From contig OZ246409.1 of assembly GCA_965231035.1 (NCBI GenBank), positions 331,101-363,100 of the forward strand: 32,000 bases of DNA. The letters run 5' to 3'. Below, in pieces: positions 6,385-19,372 of the stretch. The notes beneath the pieces were generated by a model that made no database searches, was not told the DNA's origin, and worked only from the letters and a program-made list of their open reading frames with translations. Every line of letters starts with the position of its first letter. Position 1 is the first letter of the stretch. The stretch is from an uncultured Muribaculaceae bacterium (lineage in GTDB: Bacteria; Pseudomonadota; Alphaproteobacteria; Rs-D84). The position numbers and the translations under genes are program-made.

Positions 6385-6810
6385 ATGCAAGAAAAAATTG
6401 ATATTTATAAACCTGGTGCTTTATTGAATCCCAAAATAAAAATAGAACCTAATTATTATAATATCAATGGTGAACGTTGCAGTGGTTGTAGCTATACTGA
6501 AAATTGCGAGCTTTTTAAAAGAGATTTTAAAAACTTATGTTTTGAAGAATTTCGTAAGCAAATGGATCCATTGAACCCTTACAAAAAAGAAATTTTTATT
6601 ATTGTTGATAGCATATTATATCACTTAAAAAAATTTGATAATTCAAAATCAAACCCAATGAGCCATTTTGAACAGATTGATTGTTTGACCAGCCTGGGTG
6701 TATCGAACAAAACAATTTCAGAAAGAGCAAATATTTGTTTACAATTTCTTGGTAAACAGGTTTTGGACATTTTGCGTTCACGCGGCTATTTACAAGGTCA
6801 TTCAATATAA
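6385..6810 (+). CDS. Hypothetical protein (141 aa) with a CSGC...C motif
   Basis: ORF only. It ends 8 nt before the distal copy of the tRNA-Pro 3' repeat. Confidence 0.35.
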   Translation: MQEKIDIYKPGALLNPKIKIEPNYYNINGERCSGCSYTENCELFKRDFKNLCFEEFRKQMDPLNPYKKEIFIIVDSILYHLKKFDNSKSNPMSHFEQIDCLTSLGVSNKTISERANICLQFLGKQVLDILRSRGYLQGHSI

Positions 6811-6818
6811 AATTATTA

Positions 6819-6850
6819 TTTTGGTGGTTTGATTTTTGGTCGGAGTGGCG
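6819..6850. repeat. Distal copy of the 32-bp direct repeat (tRNA-Pro 3' end plus 18 nt downstream)
   Basis: ttttggtggtttgatttttggtcggagtggcg is identical to 7009-7040. Confidence 0.9.
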
Positions 6851-7008
6851 AGAGCTGTTCGGATGCCAATAAATTGGCACACTCACCATTCGTACGATTT
6901 TACTTTGTAAAATCTTTGTTTCGCCACGTTTCACTTGCAAAACTTAACTCATACGCGAACCCACGGGTTCTCACAACTCTGTCTTTCCAACCAAAACTAA
7001 AACCACCT

Positions 7009-7040
7009 TTTTGGTGGTTTGATTTTTGGTCGGAGTGGCG
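7009..7040. repeat. Proximal copy of the 32-bp direct repeat, overlapping the last 14 nt of tRNA-Pro
   Basis: Identical to 6819-6850. This copy also forms one arm of the tRNA terminator hairpin aaaccacc/aaaaa/ggtggttt (6999-7019). Confidence 0.9.
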
Positions 7041-7103
7041 GGGTTCGAACCCACGACCTCTGCGTCCCGAACGCAGCACTCTACCAGGCTGAGCTACACT
7101 CCG
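7027..7103 (-). tRNA. tRNA-Pro (anticodon CGG), CCA encoded
   Basis: The minus strand CGGAGTG TA GCTC AGCCTGGTA GAGT G CTGCG TTCGGGA CGCAG AGGTC GTGGG TTCGAAC CCCGC CACTCCG A CCA folds by hand as a 77-nt cloverleaf. G37 is consistent with Pro tRNAs. Confidence 0.93.
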
Positions 7104-7679: not shown

Positions 7680-7739
7680 TACATATTCATAATAAAAAAC
7701 GGGATTCCCTGTTTTTTATTTATTTAATATTATTTTTAG

Positions 7740-7843
7740 AAATTAAATTATGTGAGATGATTTGGAAGTGTTTCACAAACCCGACGTGTACAAGTGTTAC
7801 ACGAGGGAATGTGAACACAACAAGTGTCCGCAGAATTTAATTT
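7740..7843. repeat. Palindromic intergenic element, copy A (REP/RPE/MITE-like, ~104 bp)
   Basis: Terminal inverted repeats: aaattaaattatg at the left end, and the right end's reverse complement reads aaattaaattctg. Nested inner arms gtgtttcacaaaccc / gggaatgtgaacac surround the core cgtgtacaagtgttacacg. Its right end overlaps the fabF stop codon. Confidence 0.8.
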
Positions 7844-9092
7844 ATATTTTTTTCAAAATCAAACTGGCGTTGGTACCACCAAAACCAAACGAGTTACTGA
7901 TTGCAACTTCGACTTTATGTTTTTTAGCTTTATTCGGAACCAAATCAAAATCACCAACCATTTCTTCTGGATCTTTCAAATTGATTGTTGGTGGAACAAT
8001 CCCATCGCGAATTGCCAAAACACAGAAAATTGCTTCAACCGCACCGGCCGCACCCAAAAGGTGCCCTGTCATTGATTTTGTAGAAGACATACAAATATTA
8101 CCAGCATCAGCAAACAATGTTTTTACTGCTGTTAATTCACCTATATCACCCAAACCAGTAGATGTTCCATGTGCGTTTACATAATCTACTTCTTCTGGTT
8201 TTATACCAGCATCTTTCAAAGCCGCTTTCATTGCACGCATTCCGCCTTCACCACCCTCGGCTGGAGCTGTAATATGATGTGCGTCACCAGACATTCCATA
8301 TCCTGCAACTTCGGCATAGATTTTTGCACCACGTGCCTTGGCATGTTCATATTCTTCCAAAACCAGAACACCTGCACCTTCGGCAATTATAAATCCATCG
8401 CGTGTTTTATCCCATGGACGAGATGCACCTTCGGGATCATCATTACGAGTTGATAAAGCTTTCATAGCTGAAAATCCGGCCATACCTATTTTACCAACTG
8501 CACCTTCGGATCCACCACAAATCATAATGTCAGCATCACCGTGCTGAATCAATCTGGCACCTTCGCCAATTGAATGAGCACCCGAAGCACAAGCAGTCAC
8601 AATAGAAATATTTGGACCCTTAAAACCATATTTTATAGAAACCTGCCCGGATGTCATGTTAATAATAGACTTTGGAATAAAAAACGGACTGATGCTGCGC
8701 GGACCATTTGTATAAAGTTCTACACAACTTTCATAAATTGAATTCAAACCGCCAATTCCCCCACCTATTGAAACCCCGACACGTTCTTTGTCACCAGTAT
8801 AGTTATCCAATCCAGCATCTTTAACTGCTTCAACGGCGGCAACAACTCCATAAAGTATTGCTTTATCCATCTTACGTTGTTCACGGGGATCAACAGAAAT
8901 ATCTGGGTTATATTGACCCGGTTCAGTACCATGAACTGGGAACCCTCCAATTTGTGAAGCCAGGTCGGACACATCAAAAAGGTCTACCTTGCGAACACCG
9001 GATTTTCCAGAAATAATATTTTTCCACGCGTATTCCACACCAGTTCCAACCGGAGTAACAACGCCCATACCTGTAATAACAACTCGTCTCAT
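7842..9092 (-). CDS. fabF: 3-oxoacyl-ACP synthase II
   Basis: MRRVVITGMGVVTPVG...TACASGAHSIG...NAHGTSTGLGD...NSFGFGGTNASLILKKI is full-length KAS II with the active-site Cys and both His contexts. Confidence 0.95.
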   Translation of the reverse strand: MRRVVITGMGVVTPVGTGVEYAWKNIISGKSGVRKVDLFDVSDLASQIGGFPVHGTEPGQYNPDISVDPREQRKMDKAILYGVVAAVEAVKDAGLDNYTGDKERVGVSIGGGIGGLNSIYESCVELYTNGPRSISPFFIPKSIINMTSGQVSIKYGFKGPNISIVTACASGAHSIGEGARLIQHGDADIMICGGSEGAVGKIGMAGFSAMKALSTRNDDPEGASRPWDKTRDGFIIAEGAGVLVLEEYEHAKARGAKIYAEVAGYGMSGDAHHITAPAEGGEGGMRAMKAALKDAGIKPEEVDYVNAHGTSTGLGDIGELTAVKTLFADAGNICMSSTKSMTGHLLGAAGAVEAIFCVLAIRDGIVPPTINLKDPEEMVGDFDLVPNKAKKHKVEVAISNSFGFGGTNASLILKKI

Positions 9093-9644: not shown

Positions 9645-10643
9645 TTATTCTACTATATTATCAATCATACGGTTCATATTTTGTCGGAAATCTTCCCGAT
9701 TAGAAGCCCAAATCAACTGCTTACTCATAAATTTATAAACATCATCCATTGTCAAATTTTGGATTTTTGCATTACCAGCAACCCGTTTCCAAGCCATTCT
9801 GGGATCGGTTAAATGATATCCGCCGCGACCCGGGAAAACCCATTTCCCATTCTGAGGCAGGTCCTGTAAAACAACAACCGCAGCATCTGACAAAGGGTGA
9901 TTTTTCCATGTGTAATGGTTAAAATCTAAATCACGCCACTGCATAGAAAACACCTTGGACTTTGGTATAAACCCGTAAATAAGCATTAAAAAGGCAGATC
10001 TTAGCACCTGAGACTTTTCTTTATTTATTGCAATTAAAAGTCTATCAAATCCGGCCCTGGTCAGTGGACGAACACGACGTTGTTCTTTTACTTTTTCTAT
10101 ATTTGAAACCGGATTTTCAGAAAGATACCCACTTTCTATTGCAAAGTTGAATATGCTGTGCACCAGTTCTTGCATACGGTTTCTGACAACATTACCATCA
10201 ATTTTATCCAACAATTCTTTGACTGTATCAGTATTTATTTCTTGGATATTTGATTCAAATATTGGTCCCAAGTGTCTGACCATTGAACGAACCAATTTTG
10301 CCAAAGATGTTTCGGTCCGATGAACTTTCTTAGTTAAATAAATATCTGCTACTCTTCTGAAGCTGACTTTTTTATGGCGTAGTTTTGGTTTTACACTGGC
10401 AGCTCTTAAAACTTCGGGAACCATAATTCTAGCATCAGCAATTTCAACATCTGGGTATTTTCCGATGATAATTCTGCGGTCATGACCATTTACACGCTTT
10501 CTGACAAAAAAGCTTTTTACCCCGCGATTTGTTATGTACATGCGAAGTCTGGGCTCGGCAGAATCCTGAACCACGTCAAATCCATTACTGGGGATGGGCA
10601 AATTGTCCAAAATATAAGGATTAAACAGAAACTGATGCGCCAT
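9645..10643 (-). CDS. P4-type (DUF4102 arm-domain) integrase homologue, apparently catalytically dead
   Basis: The N-terminus FFVRKRVNGHDRRIIIGKYPDVEIADAR matches the P4-integrase arm-binding domain and is followed by a SAM-like core-binding region. The expected catalytic R, HxxR and Y positions are not conserved (see findings). Confidence 0.6.
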   Translation of the reverse strand: MAHQFLFNPYILDNLPIPSNGFDVVQDSAEPRLRMYITNRGVKSFFVRKRVNGHDRRIIIGKYPDVEIADARIMVPEVLRAASVKPKLRHKKVSFRRVADIYLTKKVHRTETSLAKLVRSMVRHLGPIFESNIQEINTDTVKELLDKIDGNVVRNRMQELVHSIFNFAIESGYLSENPVSNIEKVKEQRRVRPLTRAGFDRLLIAINKEKSQVLRSAFLMLIYGFIPKSKVFSMQWRDLDFNHYTWKNHPLSDAAVVVLQDLPQNGKWVFPGRGGYHLTDPRMAWKRVAGNAKIQNLTMDDVYKFMSKQLIWASNREDFRQNMNRMIDNIVE

Positions 10644-12452: not shown

Positions 12453-12487
12453 AAGTGTTTTTAACCCAGTTTAAATTTATAAATTAT

Positions 12488-12592
12488 AAATTGAATTATG
12501 TGAGACGATTGGAGGCGTTTCAGCAGACCCGACGTGTACAAATGCTACACGAGGGTCTGTGAACGCAATCAAGCGGCCACAGAATTTAATTT
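12488..12592. repeat. Palindromic intergenic element, copy B (~105 bp)
   Basis: Aligns along its whole length to copy A by eye (roughly four-fifths identity) in the same orientation. Core is cgtgtacaaatgctacacg. Confidence 0.8.
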
Positions 12593-12659
12593 ATGCGGCA
12601 ATGATACACCAGTATTTCCACCTTTTCAACCTGATTCTTTATGAATTTTTGAATATTTA

Positions 12660-12687
12660 TTGACAAAAACTAAATTAGTAATATAAT
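12660..12687 (+). promoter_or_regulatory. Consensus sigma70 promoter for the three-paralogue operon
   Basis: TTGACA (12660-12665), a 16-nt spacer, then TATAAT (12682-12687). An AAAGGA RBS lies 7 nt before the ATG at 12718. Confidence 0.55.
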
Positions 12688-12717
12688 TATTTCGAATTTA
12701 AGAAAAAGGATTTTGTA

Positions 12718-13197
12718 ATGTTGGCGAATGTTACTTATGAAAATGGATTAAACGAATGTAAACCCGGCAACAATATTTGCAGTATTTTACATAAACCAAA
12801 TCCAGATATTGAAAAATTTATAAATGATGTTGATCGCAGTGGCTCATGCACCAATAAATCAAGAATTGAATATTTCCTTAACAAGGTTGATTTTGGAAGT
12901 TATATACTAGTTCGGTGCGTTAAAAAAGATAAAATTGTTCTTATGACACACGAAGAAATTAAAAAAATCCCAGGCAATGAAAATCTTGATACATTATCAA
13001 TTGATTTTTTGAATAAATCAGAGTCTGATCGTGGTGATTTTAAAAGGCTATTATCCTGCAGGAAAATTATTGATAATATTATGCAAAATCCGCCAAATGA
13101 ATGTACAAAATTAGCTTATAAAGAGTTAGGTCTAAGAGTTGACCGTCGTTTAATAGAATTAAAAAATAATCTTATAAAATGTGACTATTCAAAATAA
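12718..13197 (+). CDS. Hypothetical Cys-motif protein, paralogue 1 (159 aa)
   Basis: Shares F-x-[TN]-x3-[FY]-G-[GS]-x2-[PL]-x2-C-x-K...I[VI][FL] with the next two ORFs. No signal peptide. Confidence 0.6.
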   Translation: MLANVTYENGLNECKPGNNICSILHKPNPDIEKFINDVDRSGSCTNKSRIEYFLNKVDFGSYILVRCVKKDKIVLMTHEEIKKIPGNENLDTLSIDFLNKSESDRGDFKRLLSCRKIIDNIMQNPPNECTKLAYKELGLRVDRRLIELKNNLIKCDYSK

Positions 13198-13199
13198 AA

Positions 13200-13529
13200 A
13201 TGTCAAAAGTCAGTATATTTTACCGTGGTATTGAATTAAACTGCGCAGATTGCGACAATAATTGTCATGCAAAAAATCATTCTGAACAGGAATCAAGAAA
13301 AAAGATTTTTATGACTTTATCAAACTATGGTGGAATGATGCCTTTTCATTGTGAAAAAAATAAAATAATTGTTTTTATAAAAGTTCACGAAATGCCTTTA
13401 AATTCTGATAAAATTGTATTTCGTAAATATTCAGAAAATAAAAAGCCACAATTGATTTGGAAACAAAATTTATCTGCAAAAAGAAAAATTATAAAGAATC
13501 TTTTAGAAGAAAATATTGTTATAAAATAA
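13200..13529 (+). CDS. Hypothetical Cys-motif protein, paralogue 2 (109 aa)
   Basis: Motif C-x2-C-x3-C-x-AK-x7-RK-x2-F-x-T-x3-YGG-x2-P-x2-C. Starts 2 nt after paralogue 1 ends. Confidence 0.6.
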   Translation: MSKVSIFYRGIELNCADCDNNCHAKNHSEQESRKKIFMTLSNYGGMMPFHCEKNKIIVFIKVHEMPLNSDKIVFRKYSENKKPQLIWKQNLSAKRKIIKNLLEENIVIK

Positions 13530-13539
13530 AAGTATTGCT

Positions 13540-13911
13540 ATGAAATTCTTATTTAATAAAAACACTCTAAATAACAATGAAAAGAAACCTAATTGCTACT
13601 GTGCAAATGGTTGTGTTGCAAAACAAAAAGTGCAACAAAATATCAGAAAATCAAGATTTCTTACTGCAAAAGATTTTGGTGGGTATATACCATACTTTTG
13701 TCCTTTTTTTGAAAAATTAATTTTTTTAAAGCCTTCGGATTATAAATTTTTTCCAAATAATAAATTCTTACTTTATGATAAAAATACCAAAATATACTCT
13801 TGGGATAAAGATACCGCTGATCCGTATCGTCAATCTGTCAAAGATGAATTGTCCCCTAAACCATCTGATATTTTGCAAAATAAAATAATATTTTCAAAAA
13901 GATCCAGATAA
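13540..13911 (+). CDS. Hypothetical Cys-motif protein, paralogue 3 (123 aa)
   Basis: Motif C-x-C-x3-C-x-AK-x7-RK-x2-F-x-T-x3-FGG-x2-P-x2-C, colinear with paralogue 2. Confidence 0.6.
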   Translation: MKFLFNKNTLNNNEKKPNCYCANGCVAKQKVQQNIRKSRFLTAKDFGGYIPYFCPFFEKLIFLKPSDYKFFPNNKFLLYDKNTKIYSWDKDTADPYRQSVKDELSPKPSDILQNKIIFSKRSR

Positions 13912-13957
13912 AAGATTATTGATTTTTTTGTGGTTTTTTGATATAATAAAAACACTT

Positions 13958-13990
13958 AAAAGACGCATTTTTCGCGTCTTTTTTTATTAT
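13958..13990 (+). terminator. Rho-independent terminator after the paralogue operon
   Basis: Stem aaaagacgc / gcgtctttt with a 7-nt loop, followed by a T-run. Confidence 0.6.
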
Positions 13991-14014
13991 TAAAATTTTA
14001 TCAAAAGGACAAAA

Positions 14015-14362
14015 ATGAAACCGAGTTTATCTTTCAGAAATAATAATCCTGGAAATTTAAGATTCAGCGAATTTACAATCAGGCATGGTGCAACACACGA
14101 ATCGAATGGGTTTGCGGTTTTTCCAAATTACGAAGTTGGATTTGCAGCGTTATGTGCATTGTTCAAAACAAAAAGTTATCGTGAACTTGGTCTTTATTAT
14201 GCAGTACATCGCTATGCCCCGGCATCTGAAAATAACACTGAAAATTATATAAAGTTTATTGAAAACCAAACAGGTTTTTCGCGTGATGAATTTGTAAAAG
14301 ACCTGGACATTACAAAGCTGGCACAAGCAATTCAAAAATTCGAAGGATGGATACCAAATTAA
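14015..14362 (+). CDS. Hypothetical protein with NNPGNLR ... YAPxxENNT motifs (phage-associated family as I recall)
   Basis: MKPSLSFRNNNPGNLRF...GFAVFPNYEVGFAAL...HRYAPASENNTENYIKFI. An AAAGGA RBS precedes it. No signal peptide. Confidence 0.5.
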   Translation: MKPSLSFRNNNPGNLRFSEFTIRHGATHESNGFAVFPNYEVGFAALCALFKTKSYRELGLYYAVHRYAPASENNTENYIKFIENQTGFSRDEFVKDLDITKLAQAIQKFEGWIPN

Positions 14363-14368
14363 TTATCG

Positions 14369-15373: not shown

Positions 15374-15883
15374 TTATTCAACCCAAATGGTTGCATAAGT
15401 TGTTGCTGTTTCAGAGCCTATTGGAATTTTCACATTAGATTTTGTAACATTCAATGTATCTGTTCCGACAGATACATCAGAAATAACGTAACCAGTTCCA
15501 GACGTTGTAACACTGGCCAAACCAGATTCACCCGCAGGACCTTGAATTCCCTGGGGACCTTGGGGACCAATTTCGCCTTGGGGACCCTGTGCACCAGTTT
15601 CACCTTGGGGACCTTGGATACCTTGAATTCCCTGGGAACCTTGGGGACCAGTTTCACCCTGAGGACCCTGTGCACCAGTATCTCCGGTATCACCTTTTGG
15701 ACCCTGAGGACCAGTTTCACCCTGAGGACCTTGAGGTCCAGGAATCAGAGTTACTCCTTCTACAACCCTATCAACATAGGTTTTACTTGCAATATTACCC
15801 GAAGCATAGCCAACAGTGGTTACTATAATTATAGCAACAAGAGAAACCGAAAAAATGCAATTTTTTTTCGTCATATCAACCAT
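15374..15883 (-). CDS. Collagen-like triple-helix repeat protein (169 aa), signal peptide or signal anchor
   Basis: An N-terminal hydrophobic segment and the IASKTYVD motif are followed by 24 uninterrupted G-X-Y triplets ([19 protein letters not shown]...[13 protein letters not shown] 15521-15739) and a ~48-aa C-terminal domain ending TYATIWVE. Confidence 0.85.
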
Positions 15884-15933
15884 ACTGAGGATAAATTTAA
15901 AACACTCTTACACGAAATCATAATATTTTTATT

Positions 15934-15961
15934 TGTGTGAAAAAAGAGTTTTTTTCACACA
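15934..15961. other. Strong intergenic stem-loop between fibre genes
   Basis: tgtgtgaaaaaa / ttttttcacaca forms a 12-13-bp perfect stem with a 3-4-nt loop. Confidence 0.5.
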
Positions 15962-15973
15962 AAACAAAAAATA

Positions 15974-16831
15974 TTATCTTTCTACAACTTCCCAAGTATA
16001 TGCTGTTCCATCAAAAGTCAGAACACACTTGCTGGTTGGATTGGAACATGCACCCGGTGCAGCTGTCGCCAATGTACCCAGACTTGCTGTATCAGCTTTT
16101 AATCCCAATGCTGTATTAATAGCTGTTGATGTCATAGCATCAGTGATACCATATCCAGACAATGTTGTTGCTTTATCAGCTTTTGTTCCCAACGATGTAT
16201 CAACTTCTGTTTTTGTATAAGTTGTTGCCTGATCAGCTTTTGCTGCTAAGGCTGTATTAACATCAGCTGTATTTGCTTTTGCTGCTAATGCTGTGTTTAC
16301 ATCGGCTGTATTCGCCTTGGTTGCCAAAGAAGTGTCAACTTCTGTCTTGGTATATGTTGTTGCCTTATCAGCCTTGGCATCTAATGCAGTATTAACAGTT
16401 GCGGTTTGTGCATAACCAGTCAAGTCAGCAGATTGCAATGCTGTATCAGCCTTGCCCAAAGAAGTTTGAACATCTGTTGCCAACTTTGGTTTCGTTACAT
16501 TACCATCTACGATATCAGCAGTTCCAACAGTACTTTTTGTTGCCAATGCACCCAAACTTGCTGTATCAGCCTTTGCACCCAATGCTGTATCAACTTCAGT
16601 CTTGGTATATGTTGTGGCTTGATTTGCTTTAGCTGCTAAAGATGTATCAACTTCACTTTTTGTATAAGTTGTTGCCTGATCAGCTTTTGCTGCTATTGCA
16701 GTATTAATTGTTGTTGTTTGCGATGTATTTTGAGCATCAACATAGTTCTTACTGGCGATTTCAGCATTCGCTGCGCTTGCAAAACCTGCTGCAACTAAGA
16801 TAGCAAACAGACTAGTGGTTATTTTTTTCAT
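15974..16831 (-). CDS. Secreted tail-fibre-repeat protein (285 aa)
   Basis: Signal peptide MKKITTSLFAILVAAGFASAANA and EIASKNYVD. There are at least 5 copies of TTYTK[ST]EVDT[SA]L, ANTADVNTALAAK repeats, LSGYGITDA, and the C-terminal C-x6-C-VLTF...YTWEVV. A GGAGA RBS precedes it. Confidence 0.8.
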   Translation of the reverse strand: MKKITTSLFAILVAAGFASAANAEIASKNYVDAQNTSQTTTINTAIAAKADQATTYTKSEVDTSLAAKANQATTYTKTEVDTALGAKADTASLGALATKSTVGTADIVDGNVTKPKLATDVQTSLGKADTALQSADLTGYAQTATVNTALDAKADKATTYTKTEVDTSLATKANTADVNTALAAKANTADVNTALAAKADQATTYTKTEVDTSLGTKADKATTLSGYGITDAMTSTAINTALGLKADTASLGTLATAAPGACSNPTSKCVLTFDGTAYTWEVVER

Positions 16832-16869
16832 ATTTTTATCTCCTTAATTATATCTTGTATGTTTAAACT

Positions 16870-17772
16870 TTATTGAACTGCAACATCTTCCCAATAAACC
16901 GTTCCTGTTGTTTTATTTATGCTTAACACGCATTGTGCTTGTGCGCCTAAACAGTTTGCAGATGGTTTTGGAACAGAATATGTTTCAACAGCATTTACAG
17001 TTGTATACTTGGTTGTGCTGCCAGTATCTGTTGCGATGTTGTTTGATTTATTAGCAACATCTTCTTTTCCAGACAGGTCTGTATTAATACCTGTTACTAC
17101 ACCACCAACATAGCTTTCAACTGCATGTACAGTCGTATACTTACTTGTGCTGCCTGTATCTGTTGTCATGTTATCTGACTTATTTGCAACATCTTCCTTA
17201 GTTGCCAACGCTGTGTTAACATCTGTTGTGTTTGCTTTTGTTGCTAATCCAGTATCAACATATGTTGTATCTGCTTTGGTTGCCAATGCTGTGGTTACAT
17301 CTGTTGTGTTTGCTTTTGTTGCCAATTGACCATCAACATATGTTGTGTCAGCTTTTGTTGCCAAACCTGTGTTAACGTCTGCTGTTTTTGCATAATCTGT
17401 CAAATCAGCTGATTGCAATGCTGTATCTGCTTTGCCCAAAGTTGTTTGAACATCCAATGACAATTTTGGTTTAGTTACACTTGCATCATCAATATCAGTT
17501 GTTGTAACTGTACTTTTTGTTGCCAATGCACCCAAACTTGCTGTATCAGCCTTTGCACCCAATGCTGTATCAACTTCAGTCTTGGTATAAGTATCCGTTT
17601 TATCAGCTTTTAAATTCAATGCCGATGTTGTATTTGTAGAAAGCGTTGCATTTTGAGCATCAACGTATCCTTTACTGGTCAACTGAGTATCTCCAGGAGC
17701 TGCCTGAGCTGTACCAGCGCCAATCAGAATTACTGACATGACACCAAAAAAGACTATTTTTTTGTTTTTCAT
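16870..17772 (-). CDS. Secreted tail-fibre-repeat protein (300 aa)
   Basis: Signal peptide MKNKKIVFFGVMSVILIGAGTAQA and LTSKGYVDAQN. Also TYTKTEVDTALGAKADTASLGALATKSTV, ATKA[DN]TT[YD]V repeats, a duplicated VANKS[DN]N[MI][TA]TDTGST[ST]KYTTV[HN]AVE[ST]Y unit, and the C-terminal C-x6-C-VLSI...VYWEDV. Confidence 0.8.
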   Translation of the reverse strand: MKNKKIVFFGVMSVILIGAGTAQAAPGDTQLTSKGYVDAQNATLSTNTTSALNLKADKTDTYTKTEVDTALGAKADTASLGALATKSTVTTTDIDDASVTKPKLSLDVQTTLGKADTALQSADLTDYAKTADVNTGLATKADTTYVDGQLATKANTTDVTTALATKADTTYVDTGLATKANTTDVNTALATKEDVANKSDNMTTDTGSTSKYTTVHAVESYVGGVVTGINTDLSGKEDVANKSNNIATDTGSTTKYTTVNAVETYSVPKPSANCLGAQAQCVLSINKTTGTVYWEDVAVQ

Positions 17773-17923
17773 TTTTTTCTCCGTTTTTGTTTTTTATCCC
17801 TTTTTTCTTTTTTAAGAAAACAGGTATATTTTCTTGTGATATTCAAAAATTTTTCAACTTATGCTTATCACTACTCCCTTATTTGATTCAGTTGACTAAA
17901 CAACCAAACCTTATCTACACTTT

Positions 17924-19372
17924 TTAATAAGCTACTTTAAACCAATCTGTTTGTCCGTTATTTACAACCATAACATAGTCAGAACCATCCGCAGGTGCGC
18001 CTGTGGTACTTGGAACATCCCCTGGTTGCAAAGCTGTATCCGCCTTGCCCAAAGAAGATTGAACATCTGTTGCCAACTTTGGTTTTGTAACATTGGCATC
18101 ATCGATATCATTTGTTGCAACAGTATTCTTCGCAGCCAAAGCACCCAAGCTGGCTGTATCTGCTTTTGTCGACAAAGAAGTATTTACTTCTGTTTTTGTT
18201 GCATAGTTGGACATATCGGCCGATTGCAATGCTGTATCTGCTTTATCCAGAGAAGATTGGACATCCGTCGATAATTTTGGTTTAGTAACATTCGCGTCAT
18301 CAATATCTGTTGTTGCTACTGTATTCTTTGCAGCCAAAGCACCTAAACTCGCTGTGTCTGCCTTGGTTGATAAATCTGTTTTTGTAGCATAATTAACTAA
18401 ATCCGCTGGTTGAACTGCTGTATCTGCTTTGGCCCCTTGGACAGATGTTGCATAATTAGCAGCAGCAGCATTTATCGCAGCAATAATTGCTGAATTCATT
18501 TCCAGTGTTGTTGAATATCCTGACAAATCAGCACCAGATCCAGGTTCACCCTGTGGACCTTGGGCACCAGTATCACCTTTGTCACCCTTTTCGCCTTGAG
18601 GACCCTGTAATCCTTGTTCACCCTGTGGGCCTTGTAATCCCTGCTCTCCTTGGAGACCTTGTAAACCTTGTTCACCTTGAAGTCCCTGGGCACCATCAGC
18701 ACCTTTTAAATCTTGCAGGGATACCAAGTTAGTCCATGTACTGGATGCATCGTCATACTTCCATTGAATATGCGTTCCGTCTGATTGTAATAATATTTTT
18801 TCGCCGTTTACATTAACTGCGGATATAACACCATTTGCAATTTCAATCCCCGCACCAGCTGTTAAAATATCTTGTTTTGAATCTAATAATGTATCAGTTT
18901 CTGTTTTTGAATACTGATTATCATTAGCATCTTTTATATTATCTACTCTGGTATCTAAAACATCTATTTGATTTTGTAAATCTGTGTTATTACCTGTGCT
19001 GCCATTTGATGTGCTATAGCTGGGATTTTGAGATCTGATAGAGCTGCCACCACCAACATTTTTTCCACCACTTAAATATTTTCCAACAGAAAGTCTTGAA
19101 GAATAATAGCCAGAAGAATTTCTGGCAACACTTGTATCATTGGAATCAGAAGAAGTACTTGTTGAAGAACTGTCTGTATCAGTATTTGAATTTACTCTGA
19201 TAGACGCAGCACGCAAAGAACCCGTACGTGCAGCTGTTGCATCGGAAGCACTGTTATATGTAGTCGCACCACCAAAAGATCTTATGGACGGAGCAGCATG
19301 TACACCACTAAAAGTGGTTGTACAAAAAACGCAAACTATTGATAATAATGATATCTTTACGTTATGTCTCAT
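17924..19372 (-). CDS. Secreted collagen-like plus tail-fibre-repeat protein (482 aa)
   Basis: Signal peptide MRHNVKISLLSIVCVFCTTTFSGVHA and a Ser/Thr/Asn-rich region. HIQWKYDDASSTWTNLVSLQDLKG leads into 19 G-X-Y triplets (DNA 18533-18703), followed by two tandem ~63-aa units containing DTASLGALAAKNTVAT.DIDDANVTKPKL.TDVQSSL.KADTALQ. Confidence 0.85.
   Translation of the reverse strand: MRHNVKISLLSIVCVFCTTTFSGVHAAPSIRSFGGATTYNSASDATAARTGSLRAASIRVNSNTDTDSSSTSTSSDSNDTSVARNSSGYYSSRLSVGKYLSGGKNVGGGSSIRSQNPSYSTSNGSTGNNTDLQNQIDVLDTRVDNIKDANDNQYSKTETDTLLDSKQDILTAGAGIEIANGVISAVNVNGEKILLQSDGTHIQWKYDDASSTWTNLVSLQDLKGADGAQGLQGEQGLQGLQGEQGLQGPQGEQGLQGPQGEKGDKGDTGAQGPQGEPGSGADLSGYSTTLEMNSAIIAAINAAAANYATSVQGAKADTAVQPADLVNYATKTDLSTKADTASLGALAAKNTVATTDIDDANVTKPKLSTDVQSSLDKADTALQSADMSNYATKTEVNTSLSTKADTASLGALAAKNTVATNDIDDANVTKPKLATDVQSSLGKADTALQPGDVPSTTGAPADGSDYVMVVNNGQTDWFKVAY
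18025..18410. repeat. Tandem ~190-nt duplication inside the 482-aa fibre gene
   Basis: Two adjacent near-identical coding units (approximate boundaries 18025-18222 and 18223-18410). The same module occurs once each in the 285-aa and 300-aa genes. Confidence 0.75.

Follow-up and report, generated by a model that had tools for sequence, protein, structure and literature searches.

We examined a window of 32,000 nucleotides (nt) from an alphaproteobacterial contig (OZ246409.1, positions 331,101 to 363,100, forward strand), in which lepA and rbfA are separated by three small open reading frames (ORFs) encoding cysteine-motif proteins, ORF1 to ORF3, and by a fourth, ORF4, encoding an endolysin catalytic domain. 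An earlier reading of this DNA, made from its letters alone (the original prediction), had picked out the first three as an operon of paralogous genes, and it is the nature, variation and possible role of their products that we address here. Coordinates are those of the window unless they follow the number of a homologous locus (L001 and so on). The operon consists of the following features:

12660..12687 (+), Cys-operon promoter, TTGACA-16-TATAAT, 12/12 match
12718..13197 (+), ORF1, 159 amino acids (aa); type I, the long subtype, having a 17-aa insertion and a helical extension at the C-terminus; second Cys absent
13200..13529 (+), ORF2, 109 aa; C-x2-C-x3-C ... C; starts 2 nt past the ORF1 stop
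13540..13911 (+), ORF3, 123 aa; C-x-C-x3-C ... CP; type II

The three genes lie on the plus strand with intergenic gaps of 2 nt and 10 nt, and an AAGGA sequence is found 7 nt ahead of the ORF1 ATG. Their promoter is the only perfect TTGACA-16-TATAAT in the 32-kb window (0.07 expected), and both of its hexamers are kept in L001, L087, L093 and L095, and also in L086. The Cys block has a GC content of 27% (25–29%), compared with 33–35% for ORF4 and 36.5% (36–37%) for the locus. By BLASTP, ORF2 and ORF3 match each other at E=3e-10 and ORF1 and ORF3 at E=8e-6; the direct match of ORF1 with ORF2 is just E=0.25, and these two are connected via other family members, the nearest relatives of ORF1 being the proteins of 126 aa (E 1e-17) and 140 aa (E 5e-13) encoded at L086. 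On these similarities ORF1 to ORF3 are judged true paralogues, beyond chance. The original prediction thus holds for the trio with its coordinates and gaps, for a promoter of its own and for the shared signature, which is found literally in ORF2 and ORF3 and in its second half in ORF1; full-length alignment of ORF1 shows that the N-terminal Cys pair and a C-terminal 'R-x3-K-x-LL' region are kept there too. It was also right on the absence of a signal peptide: neither the three proteins nor their relatives have a signal peptide or transmembrane (TM) segment (maximum KD19 hydropathy <1.3). The family members are small (about 100–160 aa), soluble and mostly basic, the isoelectric point (pI) being 8.2–9.8 in all but one (the 121-aa protein of L095, 6.9).

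Given an AT-rich region and proteins with no Pfam match, ORF1 to ORF3 might be taken for chance reading frames. This reading is refuted, leaving it a negligible chance, because the motif is conserved and the genes are intact and syntenic in several lineages, because ratios of non-synonymous to synonymous substitution (dN/dS) are below 0.3, and because pairwise E-values among homologues of different species reach down to 1e-40. All three genes are intact in a sister strain (L001–L003) whose LepA is 98.3% identical, and comparison with L001 gave dN/dS values of 0.28, 0.14 and 0.19 for ORF1, ORF2 and ORF3 respectively, against 0.01–0.04 for lepA, fabF, an integrase-like gene and a VTT gene, and 0.11 for rbfA. 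These ratios indicate purifying selection on ORF1 to ORF3, with several times less constraint than on the lepA, fabF, integrase-like and VTT genes. By these measures the three are expressed-looking, selectively maintained genes.

A cysteine-motif family confined to one locus

We built a profile from the three paralogues and searched 1.84 billion representative proteins with it exhaustively (HMMER), obtaining eight true clusters, of which five (P0004–P0008) are additional to the query trio. A ninth match, a 3796-aa repeat adhesin (P0009; E=8e-5 over 8 stretches), was rejected as a compositional or repeat artefact; its best-scoring matched repeat has no Cys and is made up of N/T/D-rich Ig-like repeats. 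The contig of every cluster showed the same order: lepA (−), Cys gene or genes (+), ORF4 (+), rbfA (−). The family is confined to about six related lineages of uncultured Rickettsiales-like bacteria, in which LepA is 91–93% identical to that of the window; the nearest catalogued genomes, with LepA at 88% identity, are uncultured Rickettsiales metagenome-assembled genomes (MAGs) and a rumen MAG, and one locus comes from an activated-sludge metagenome; the contigs as a whole stem from activated-sludge, digester and rumen samples. Beyond the window and its sister strain, the Cys genes found were:

L087, Cys genes of 121 and 104 aa
L092, 121 and 147 aa
L093, 94 (truncated) and 132 aa
L095, L096, L098 and L101, 102, 101 and 121 aa
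L086, 140 and 126 aa; the contig end cuts the locus
L182, a single gene of 153 aa

The first Cys gene of L093 (4932–5337; likewise in L094) is truncated at the N-terminus to 94 aa with loss of the Cys knuckle, and N-terminal coding remnants lie upstream of it in another frame; either a frameshift has made it a pseudogene or the assembly is in error.

Copy number is one to three per locus, answering the survey that the original prediction had proposed, and all-against-all comparison divides the proteins into about five subtypes. Across 15 members C25, C54 and R36 (numbered as in ORF3) do not vary and G47 hardly varies; in a nine-sequence alignment C19 and F40 are likewise invariant, and only ORF1 lacks C21. 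The first Cys pair is separated by 0–2 residues, for an overall spacing of C-x(0-2)-C-x3-C-x27-29-C. Non-conservation of the cysteines in homologues had been named beforehand as grounds for giving up the prediction; because they are conserved, those grounds fall away. The mention of four cysteines requires amendment for ORF1, which lacks one; most members of the family have a fourth Cys.

Elsewhere the family was not encountered. A word-index protein search with ORF3 returned the sister-strain copy alone, and one with family profile A3 returned members of the locus alone. Searching ORF3 by tblastn gave no match in 50,697 phage genomes and a single chance match (E=1) in 72,556 plasmids. An association of the Cys genes with ORF4-type endolysins in other organisms was also considered and rejected: 0 of 78 distant loci with an ORF4 homologue carry a member by the family hidden Markov model (HMM), a match in L120 at E=0.02 being spurious.

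The original prediction had failed to recognise the family, and comparison with Pfam, NCBIfam, PHROGs, PADLOC, the Protein Data Bank (PDB) and Foldseek databases likewise yielded no relative. Pfam, NCBIfam, PHROGs and PADLOC with ORF1 to ORF3, and Pfam with 15 members, gave sub-threshold noise alone; in PHROGs nothing was better than E=0.1, and PADLOC-DB had no match, so neither a known anti-phage defence family nor a known phage family was identified. A TRASH or MYM-type zinc finger was rejected since its model, TRASH_ZMYM4 (PF24900), matched two of the 15 members at E 0.063 and 13.7 bits, below the 27-bit Pfam threshold; a model named TTC3_DZIP3 reached E 0.046. A 4Fe-4S ferredoxin of the Fer4 clan was rejected on the grounds that the spacing is not CxxCxxCxxxCP and that one of the 15 gave a sub-threshold match (Fer4_21, E=1.4e-3), the other members giving nothing. 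Membership of the Q antiterminators was rejected on the absence of any Q-family Pfam match at E<=10 in 15 members and on template modelling (TM) scores below 0.3 against the PDB by Foldseek, with a model of only moderate confidence. Family profiles A2 and A6 retrieved nothing below E=0.28 from the sequences of the PDB.

An AlphaFold2 (AF2) model of ORF3 built from nine sequences is of moderate confidence (mean predicted local distance difference test, pLDDT, 71; predicted TM-score, pTM, 0.64). In it the Cys loop (residues 11–30) is of low confidence (pLDDT 48–66) and is followed by a helix (30–42), four strands (50–54, 59–63, 77–80 and 85–88) and a second helix (90–104). The best Foldseek matches of this model had E 0.35 in the PDB and E 0.54 in BFVD, with TM-scores below 0.3. 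The family is therefore new at the protein level, with no Pfam, NCBIfam, PHROG or PDB relative and a predicted fold that is unmatched. Metal binding by the Cys proteins is plausible, and the pattern of their cysteines would fit a structural zinc site and an Fe-S site equally well.

The endolysin gene and its leader

Downstream of ORF3 the window contains a second unit, which is also the conserved core of the island:

13919..13947 (+), ORF4 promoter, TTGATT-17-TATAAT with TG, immediately past the stop codon of ORF3
13958..13989 (+), hairpin followed by T7, resembling an intrinsic terminator; ends the Cys operon and lies within the ORF4 leader
14015..14362 (+), ORF4, 115 aa; stand-alone Enc34/PHA02564-type endolysin catalytic domain

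ORF4 matches PHROG 873, 'endolysin', at 3.7e-16, together with domains of virion-associated lysins and many phage proteins whose annotation is endolysin or internal virion protein; one homologue, in Providencia phage PSTNGR2lys, directly follows a holin gene. The AF2 model of ORF4, built with 32 homologues, has a pLDDT of 91.8 and retrieved structure 7q47 with Foldseek (TM-score 0.70, probability 1.0), to which the ORF4 family profile also aligns at E=7.4e-16. The alignment closes on an Enc34 glutamate, which we take to be the catalytic Glu131, opposite E109 of ORF4, and ORF4 ends about six residues beyond it. Neither a TM segment nor a signal peptide is present in ORF4 (maximum KD19 hydropathy 1.38). 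Muralytic activity of the Enc34 endolysin, a PHA02564-family enzyme with a C-terminal TM domain, has been shown experimentally (PMC8943055). A literature search on the ORF4 motif 'NNPGN' found nothing relevant. About ten lineages of uncultured Rickettsiales-like bacteria have ORF4 as a fixed gene between lepA and rbfA; identity between lineages is 63–76%. ORF4 looks like a domesticated phage lysin. The survey of co-occurring genes identified it as the constant neighbour of the Cys genes, in shared orientation, in all six cassette-bearing lineages.

The ORF4 leader (13919–14014) has counterparts in other lineages (L087 10782–10885; L095 9906–10007; L180 5915–6000; also L182, L183 and L185). In the lineages aligned, the promoter hexamers are invariant and the spacer variable; L180, L181, L183 and L185, in which Cys genes are lacking, have a related promoter. 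About 10 nt separate the promoter from the hairpin and its T7 run, and about 25 nt separate that run from the ORF4 ATG. The hairpin has a 9-bp stem (−10.7 kcal/mol, z = −4.8); elsewhere it occupies the same place with differing stems (GACGC/GCGTC, GGGACGAAG/CTTCGTCCC, GGACACG/CGTGTCC, GGACCGG/CCGGTCC), always followed by T7–8. With a hairpin, a U-run and a structure kept across lineages, 13958–13989 has the attributes of a Rho-independent terminator. No Rfam family matched in the region, the best score being for a Bacteroides small RNA (20 bits versus a cut-off of 80 bits). The hairpin and T-run of the clean terminator that the original prediction had assigned to the Cys operon are thus borne out, but they form part of a conserved ORF4 leader that is present in four lineages without Cys genes. 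As no further promoter would fit ahead of the ATG, expression of ORF4 apparently depends on read-through of this terminator. A leader in which a promoter is followed at once by a terminator constitutes a concrete regulatory puzzle in itself.

A two-layered island between lepA and rbfA

At the nucleotide level, the window aligns with other species at 67–85% identity in rbfA, in lepA and its promoter, and in ORF4 and its promoter; nothing aligns over 12690–13907, whose flanks are 74–83% identical. At the protein level ORF3 is 38% identical to its closest counterpart in L087, compared with 76% for ORF4 and 93% for LepA from the same genomes. The exchange can be followed between L087 and L092, strains of one species in which the flanks are 99.2–99.8% identical and one Cys gene is cleanly replaced by another: a segment of 313 nt with a 104-aa gene in L087 (10466–10778) corresponds to 403 nt with a gene of another subtype in L092 (2234–2636). 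As judged from these alignments, the variation is cassette-wise mosaicism with breakpoints at gene ends.

In four lineages (L180, L181, L183/L184 and L185/L186) the promoter-hairpin-ORF4 unit is present and ORF4 directly follows lepA, with no Cys-family ORF detected even down to 25 aa. The Cys genes are therefore a dispensable, hypervariable add-on. In two loci of related species, L006 and L007, neither ORF4 nor Cys genes are found, and rbfA (with an acetyltransferase gene) and lepA are adjacent and co-oriented. Since the ORF4 unit occurs without the cassette and L006 and L007 carry neither, the island is two-layered, consisting of a conserved domesticated endolysin unit and a facultative array of Cys-gene cassettes situated between the lepA promoter and the ORF4 promoter. 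An accessory insertion into the lepA–rbfA neighbourhood had been proposed, and the adjacency of the two genes in L006 and L007 supports this; rather than one recent insertion, however, the Cys genes are the variable layer of an older island.

The left side of the island is bordered by two further features:

12594..12650 (−), lepA promoter block, TTGAAA-17-TATCAT; left boundary of the variable island
12484..12594 (no strand), palindromic element B, a 110-nt hairpin resembling miniature inverted-repeat transposable elements (MITEs) or Rickettsia palindromic elements (RPEs), between the lepA promoter and the lepA start

The 21-mer GCGGCAATGATACACCAGTAT within the lepA promoter block is identical in 19 loci; we considered it as a regulatory site of the cassette upstream of the operon and rejected this, as it belongs to the lepA promoter region and is present in the island-less L006. 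Element B folds as one long hairpin (−47.7 kcal/mol, z = −6.25) and has a second copy upstream of fabF (7736–7845). At the lepA site it is present in L001–L005 and L086 (105–215) and absent from L087, L093 and L095; it is outside the Cys cassette.

Several other observations were made on the surroundings. On the far side of lepA, a minus-strand gene (9645–10643) encodes a 332-aa protein with the Arm-DNA-binding and central domains of phage integrases but without a match to the catalytic domain, possibly an integrase that has degenerated or been repurposed. It lies beside lepA in most relatives and is absent from L180; its position, the lack of a catalytic-domain match and its retention in the island-less L007 led us to reject it as the marker of a mobile element bearing the cassettes. 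A 43-nt direct repeat (6808–6850 and 6998–7040, 88% identical), the second copy of which overlaps the 3' end of tRNA-Pro(cgg) (7027–7103, −), resembles the att-type scar that an element would leave on integration at the tRNA gene or excision from it. In relatives, the space between rbfA and ORF4 (or lepA) contains from one to three genes for GNAT acetyltransferases, in the following regions:

L001 11037–11546
L181 563–1515
L183 5358–6276
L185 3380–4924
L006 7456–7893

In the sister strain the GNAT genes are reduced to fragments of 105 and 47 aa, and in L087 a DUF1653 gene takes their place; the window has none, ORF4 and rbfA being convergent with a gap of 6 nt (14363–14368). Further along, a minus-strand run of repeat-rich, probably surface proteins (15374–19372) includes two with collagen G-x-y repeats (169 and 482 aa) and two with 39-nt (13-aa) tandem repeats and 263-nt blocks in common (285 and 300 aa).

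Possible functions and comparison with known systems

Our preferred reading, to which we give a probability of only about 0.3, is that the Cys proteins are diversified binding proteins with a structural metal site, belonging to a conflict-type or phage-accessory context. The Cys cluster would ligate a metal, either zinc or an Fe-S cluster, and so stabilise a small binding module; the proteins would act in the cytoplasm on a variable macromolecular target; and the genes would be phage-style accessory ('moron'-like) genes residing beside a domesticated phage lysis gene and exchanged one cassette at a time when the conserved flanks recombine. That they are diversified, patchily distributed and dispensable suggests a role in conflict, such as inhibition, exclusion or anti-defence, and speaks against a housekeeping role or one obligatory for ORF4 expression. 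The suggestion of an effector, inhibitor or anti-defence set in the original prediction may be compatible with this hypervariability; PADLOC was negative. Several findings weigh against the reading. No member is found among the phage and plasmid collections searched, and a phage origin is therefore argued solely from the neighbouring gene and the mosaic pattern. ORF1 is without one of the four cysteines, the Cys loop of the ORF3 model is of low confidence, and both PADLOC and PHROGs were negative for ORF1 to ORF3. With dN/dS below 1, no positive selection is seen at strain level. The strict adjacency to ORF4 could also be no more than a trace of history, if the family arose here and duplicated in tandem, and low GC with fast evolution would fit weakly constrained orphan genes as well.

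Two alternatives tie the Cys proteins to ORF4. They could be regulators that let RNA polymerase read through the terminator ahead of it, as suggested by the order of Cys genes, promoter, hairpin and endolysin gene; by the need for read-through when only about 25 nt precede the ATG; by the mostly basic character of the proteins and their conserved Q-x2-R-K helix; and by the location of every known family member directly upstream of the ORF4 unit. We regard this as unlikely: that unit is intact in four lineages without a Cys gene, no conserved loading- or pause-type sequence is present between the −10 hexamer and the hairpin, and the hairpin sequence does not co-vary with the set of subtypes, as the leaders of L087 and L092 are 99.8% identical and their sets differ. 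Moreover, 25–38% identity and strain-level swaps are not expected of regulators of a conserved target, and the Cys proteins resemble neither Q-type nor Ogr-type proteins in sequence or fold. The boldest form of this idea, in which metal-binding proteins of new fold would represent a fourth, unrelated class of Q-like antiterminator that suppresses the terminator ahead of ORF4 and thereby gates a domesticated phage endolysin in an intracellular bacterium, we hold to be very doubtful; if it were true, swappable paralogues would tune the timing of wall remodelling or lysis in the symbiont. Direct partnership with ORF4, as inhibitors, chaperones or targeting adaptors, would account for the constant adjacency and shared orientation in six cassette-bearing lineages, and also for how ORF4 might reach peptidoglycan, for which it would need a partner because it has neither a TM segment nor a signal peptide, unlike the TM-bearing Enc34 enzyme (PMC8943055). 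Yet ORF4 stands alone in four lineages, it is well conserved where the Cys proteins are not, which is unlike the co-evolution of tight partners, and the Cys proteins themselves have no membrane segment for export, making this a poor prospect. Were the Cys proteins either to control or to partner the endolysin, the locus would offer a compact model of an obligate symbiont taming a phage lysis gene.

The other alternatives dispense with ORF4. Export of diversified small proteins, for instance by type IV secretion, into a eukaryotic host or a competitor, with the Cys motif binding zinc, would suit a lineage-specific, tandemly duplicated, fast-evolving and AT-rich family in uncultured Rickettsiales-like bacteria. 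Basic C-terminal tails are reminiscent of type IV secretion signals, and many members end in such tails (...KRSR, ...KNR, ...CSR, ...SQR), a weak cue; the faint matches to the eukaryotic-type models TRASH_ZMYM4 and TTC3_DZIP3 point the same way. We nonetheless think it improbable, as no signal peptide is present, no secretion system or chaperone is seen in the locus, the domain matches are all far below threshold, and Lys-rich proteins from AT-rich DNA are expected to have basic C-termini anyway. If the proteins were effectors or anti-phage factors, they would represent a new small metal-binding scaffold. Finally, the Cys genes may be unlinked to ORF4, encoding redox or Fe-S proteins or being weakly constrained orphans in a spacer that is simply a permissive spot for the birth, duplication and loss of such genes. 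Three clustered cysteines and a remote one, often followed by Pro, recall the three-plus-one ligation of 4Fe-4S clusters, and the Fer4_21 match of one member, the very low GC (near intergenic level), the relaxed constraint and the patchy presence are all in keeping with such an origin. Set against this are the restriction of the ferredoxin match to a single member below threshold, the departure from CxxCxxCxxxCP spacing, dN/dS values of 0.14–0.28 and a core conserved across lineages, which argue for function, and a conserved perfect promoter, which argues for deliberate expression; we consider it unlikely.

A fast-evolving, strain-swappable array of small Cys proteins beside a phage-derived gene follows a pattern already known in phage morons, in effector repertoires and in immunity arrays. 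The locus makes a good, compact experimental target.

Among known systems, the lambdoid late module (phages lambda, 82 and 21) comprises a Q antiterminator gene, the PR' promoter, the tR' terminator and the lysis genes, and the Q protein of lambda binds zinc. The present locus is similar in its succession of small, possibly metal-binding gene(s), strong promoter, intrinsic terminator and endolysin gene. It differs in having one to three paralogues in place of a single gene, with no Q-family similarity in sequence or fold; in the onset of the hairpin about 10 nt or less from the likely start site and the lack of a conserved pause or loading element; in the persistence of the promoter-terminator-endolysin unit without Cys genes; and in the absence of a holin or spanin gene. 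ORF4 resembles the Enc34/PHA02564 endolysin in profile, fold (TM-score 0.70 with 7q47) and the aligned Glu, but is a bare 115-aa domain without the C-terminal TM region (PMC8943055), encoded on the chromosome at a single fixed locus in the clade.

The Cys proteins themselves share their size (about 70–160 aa), four cysteines, cytoplasmic location, occurrence as several paralogues and association with phage with two groups of regulators. These small Cys4 paralogues are the WhiB-like Fe-S proteins of actinobacteria and their phages and the Ogr/Delta zinc-finger late activators of P2 and P4. The spacing C-x(0-2)-C-x3-C-x27-29-C, the absence of a Pfam match in 15 members and the unmatched fold set the family apart from both. 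Phage morons and the mosaic cassettes of nin regions offer a further class for comparison. Like morons, the Cys genes are gene-sized units with sharp boundaries, exchanged between near-identical genomes, located upstream of a late or lysis-type promoter, lower in GC than the host, and furnished with a dedicated promoter and terminator; unlike them, they have no recognisable prophage around them and are absent from the phage and plasmid collections searched. In behaviour, then, the family appears closest to the accessory cassettes of phage moron and late regions or to small Cys4 regulators, a likeness that does not amount to membership, and its overall pattern, a fast-evolving array of small proteins in an accessory spot of an endosymbiont genome, is a variant of a familiar phenomenon.

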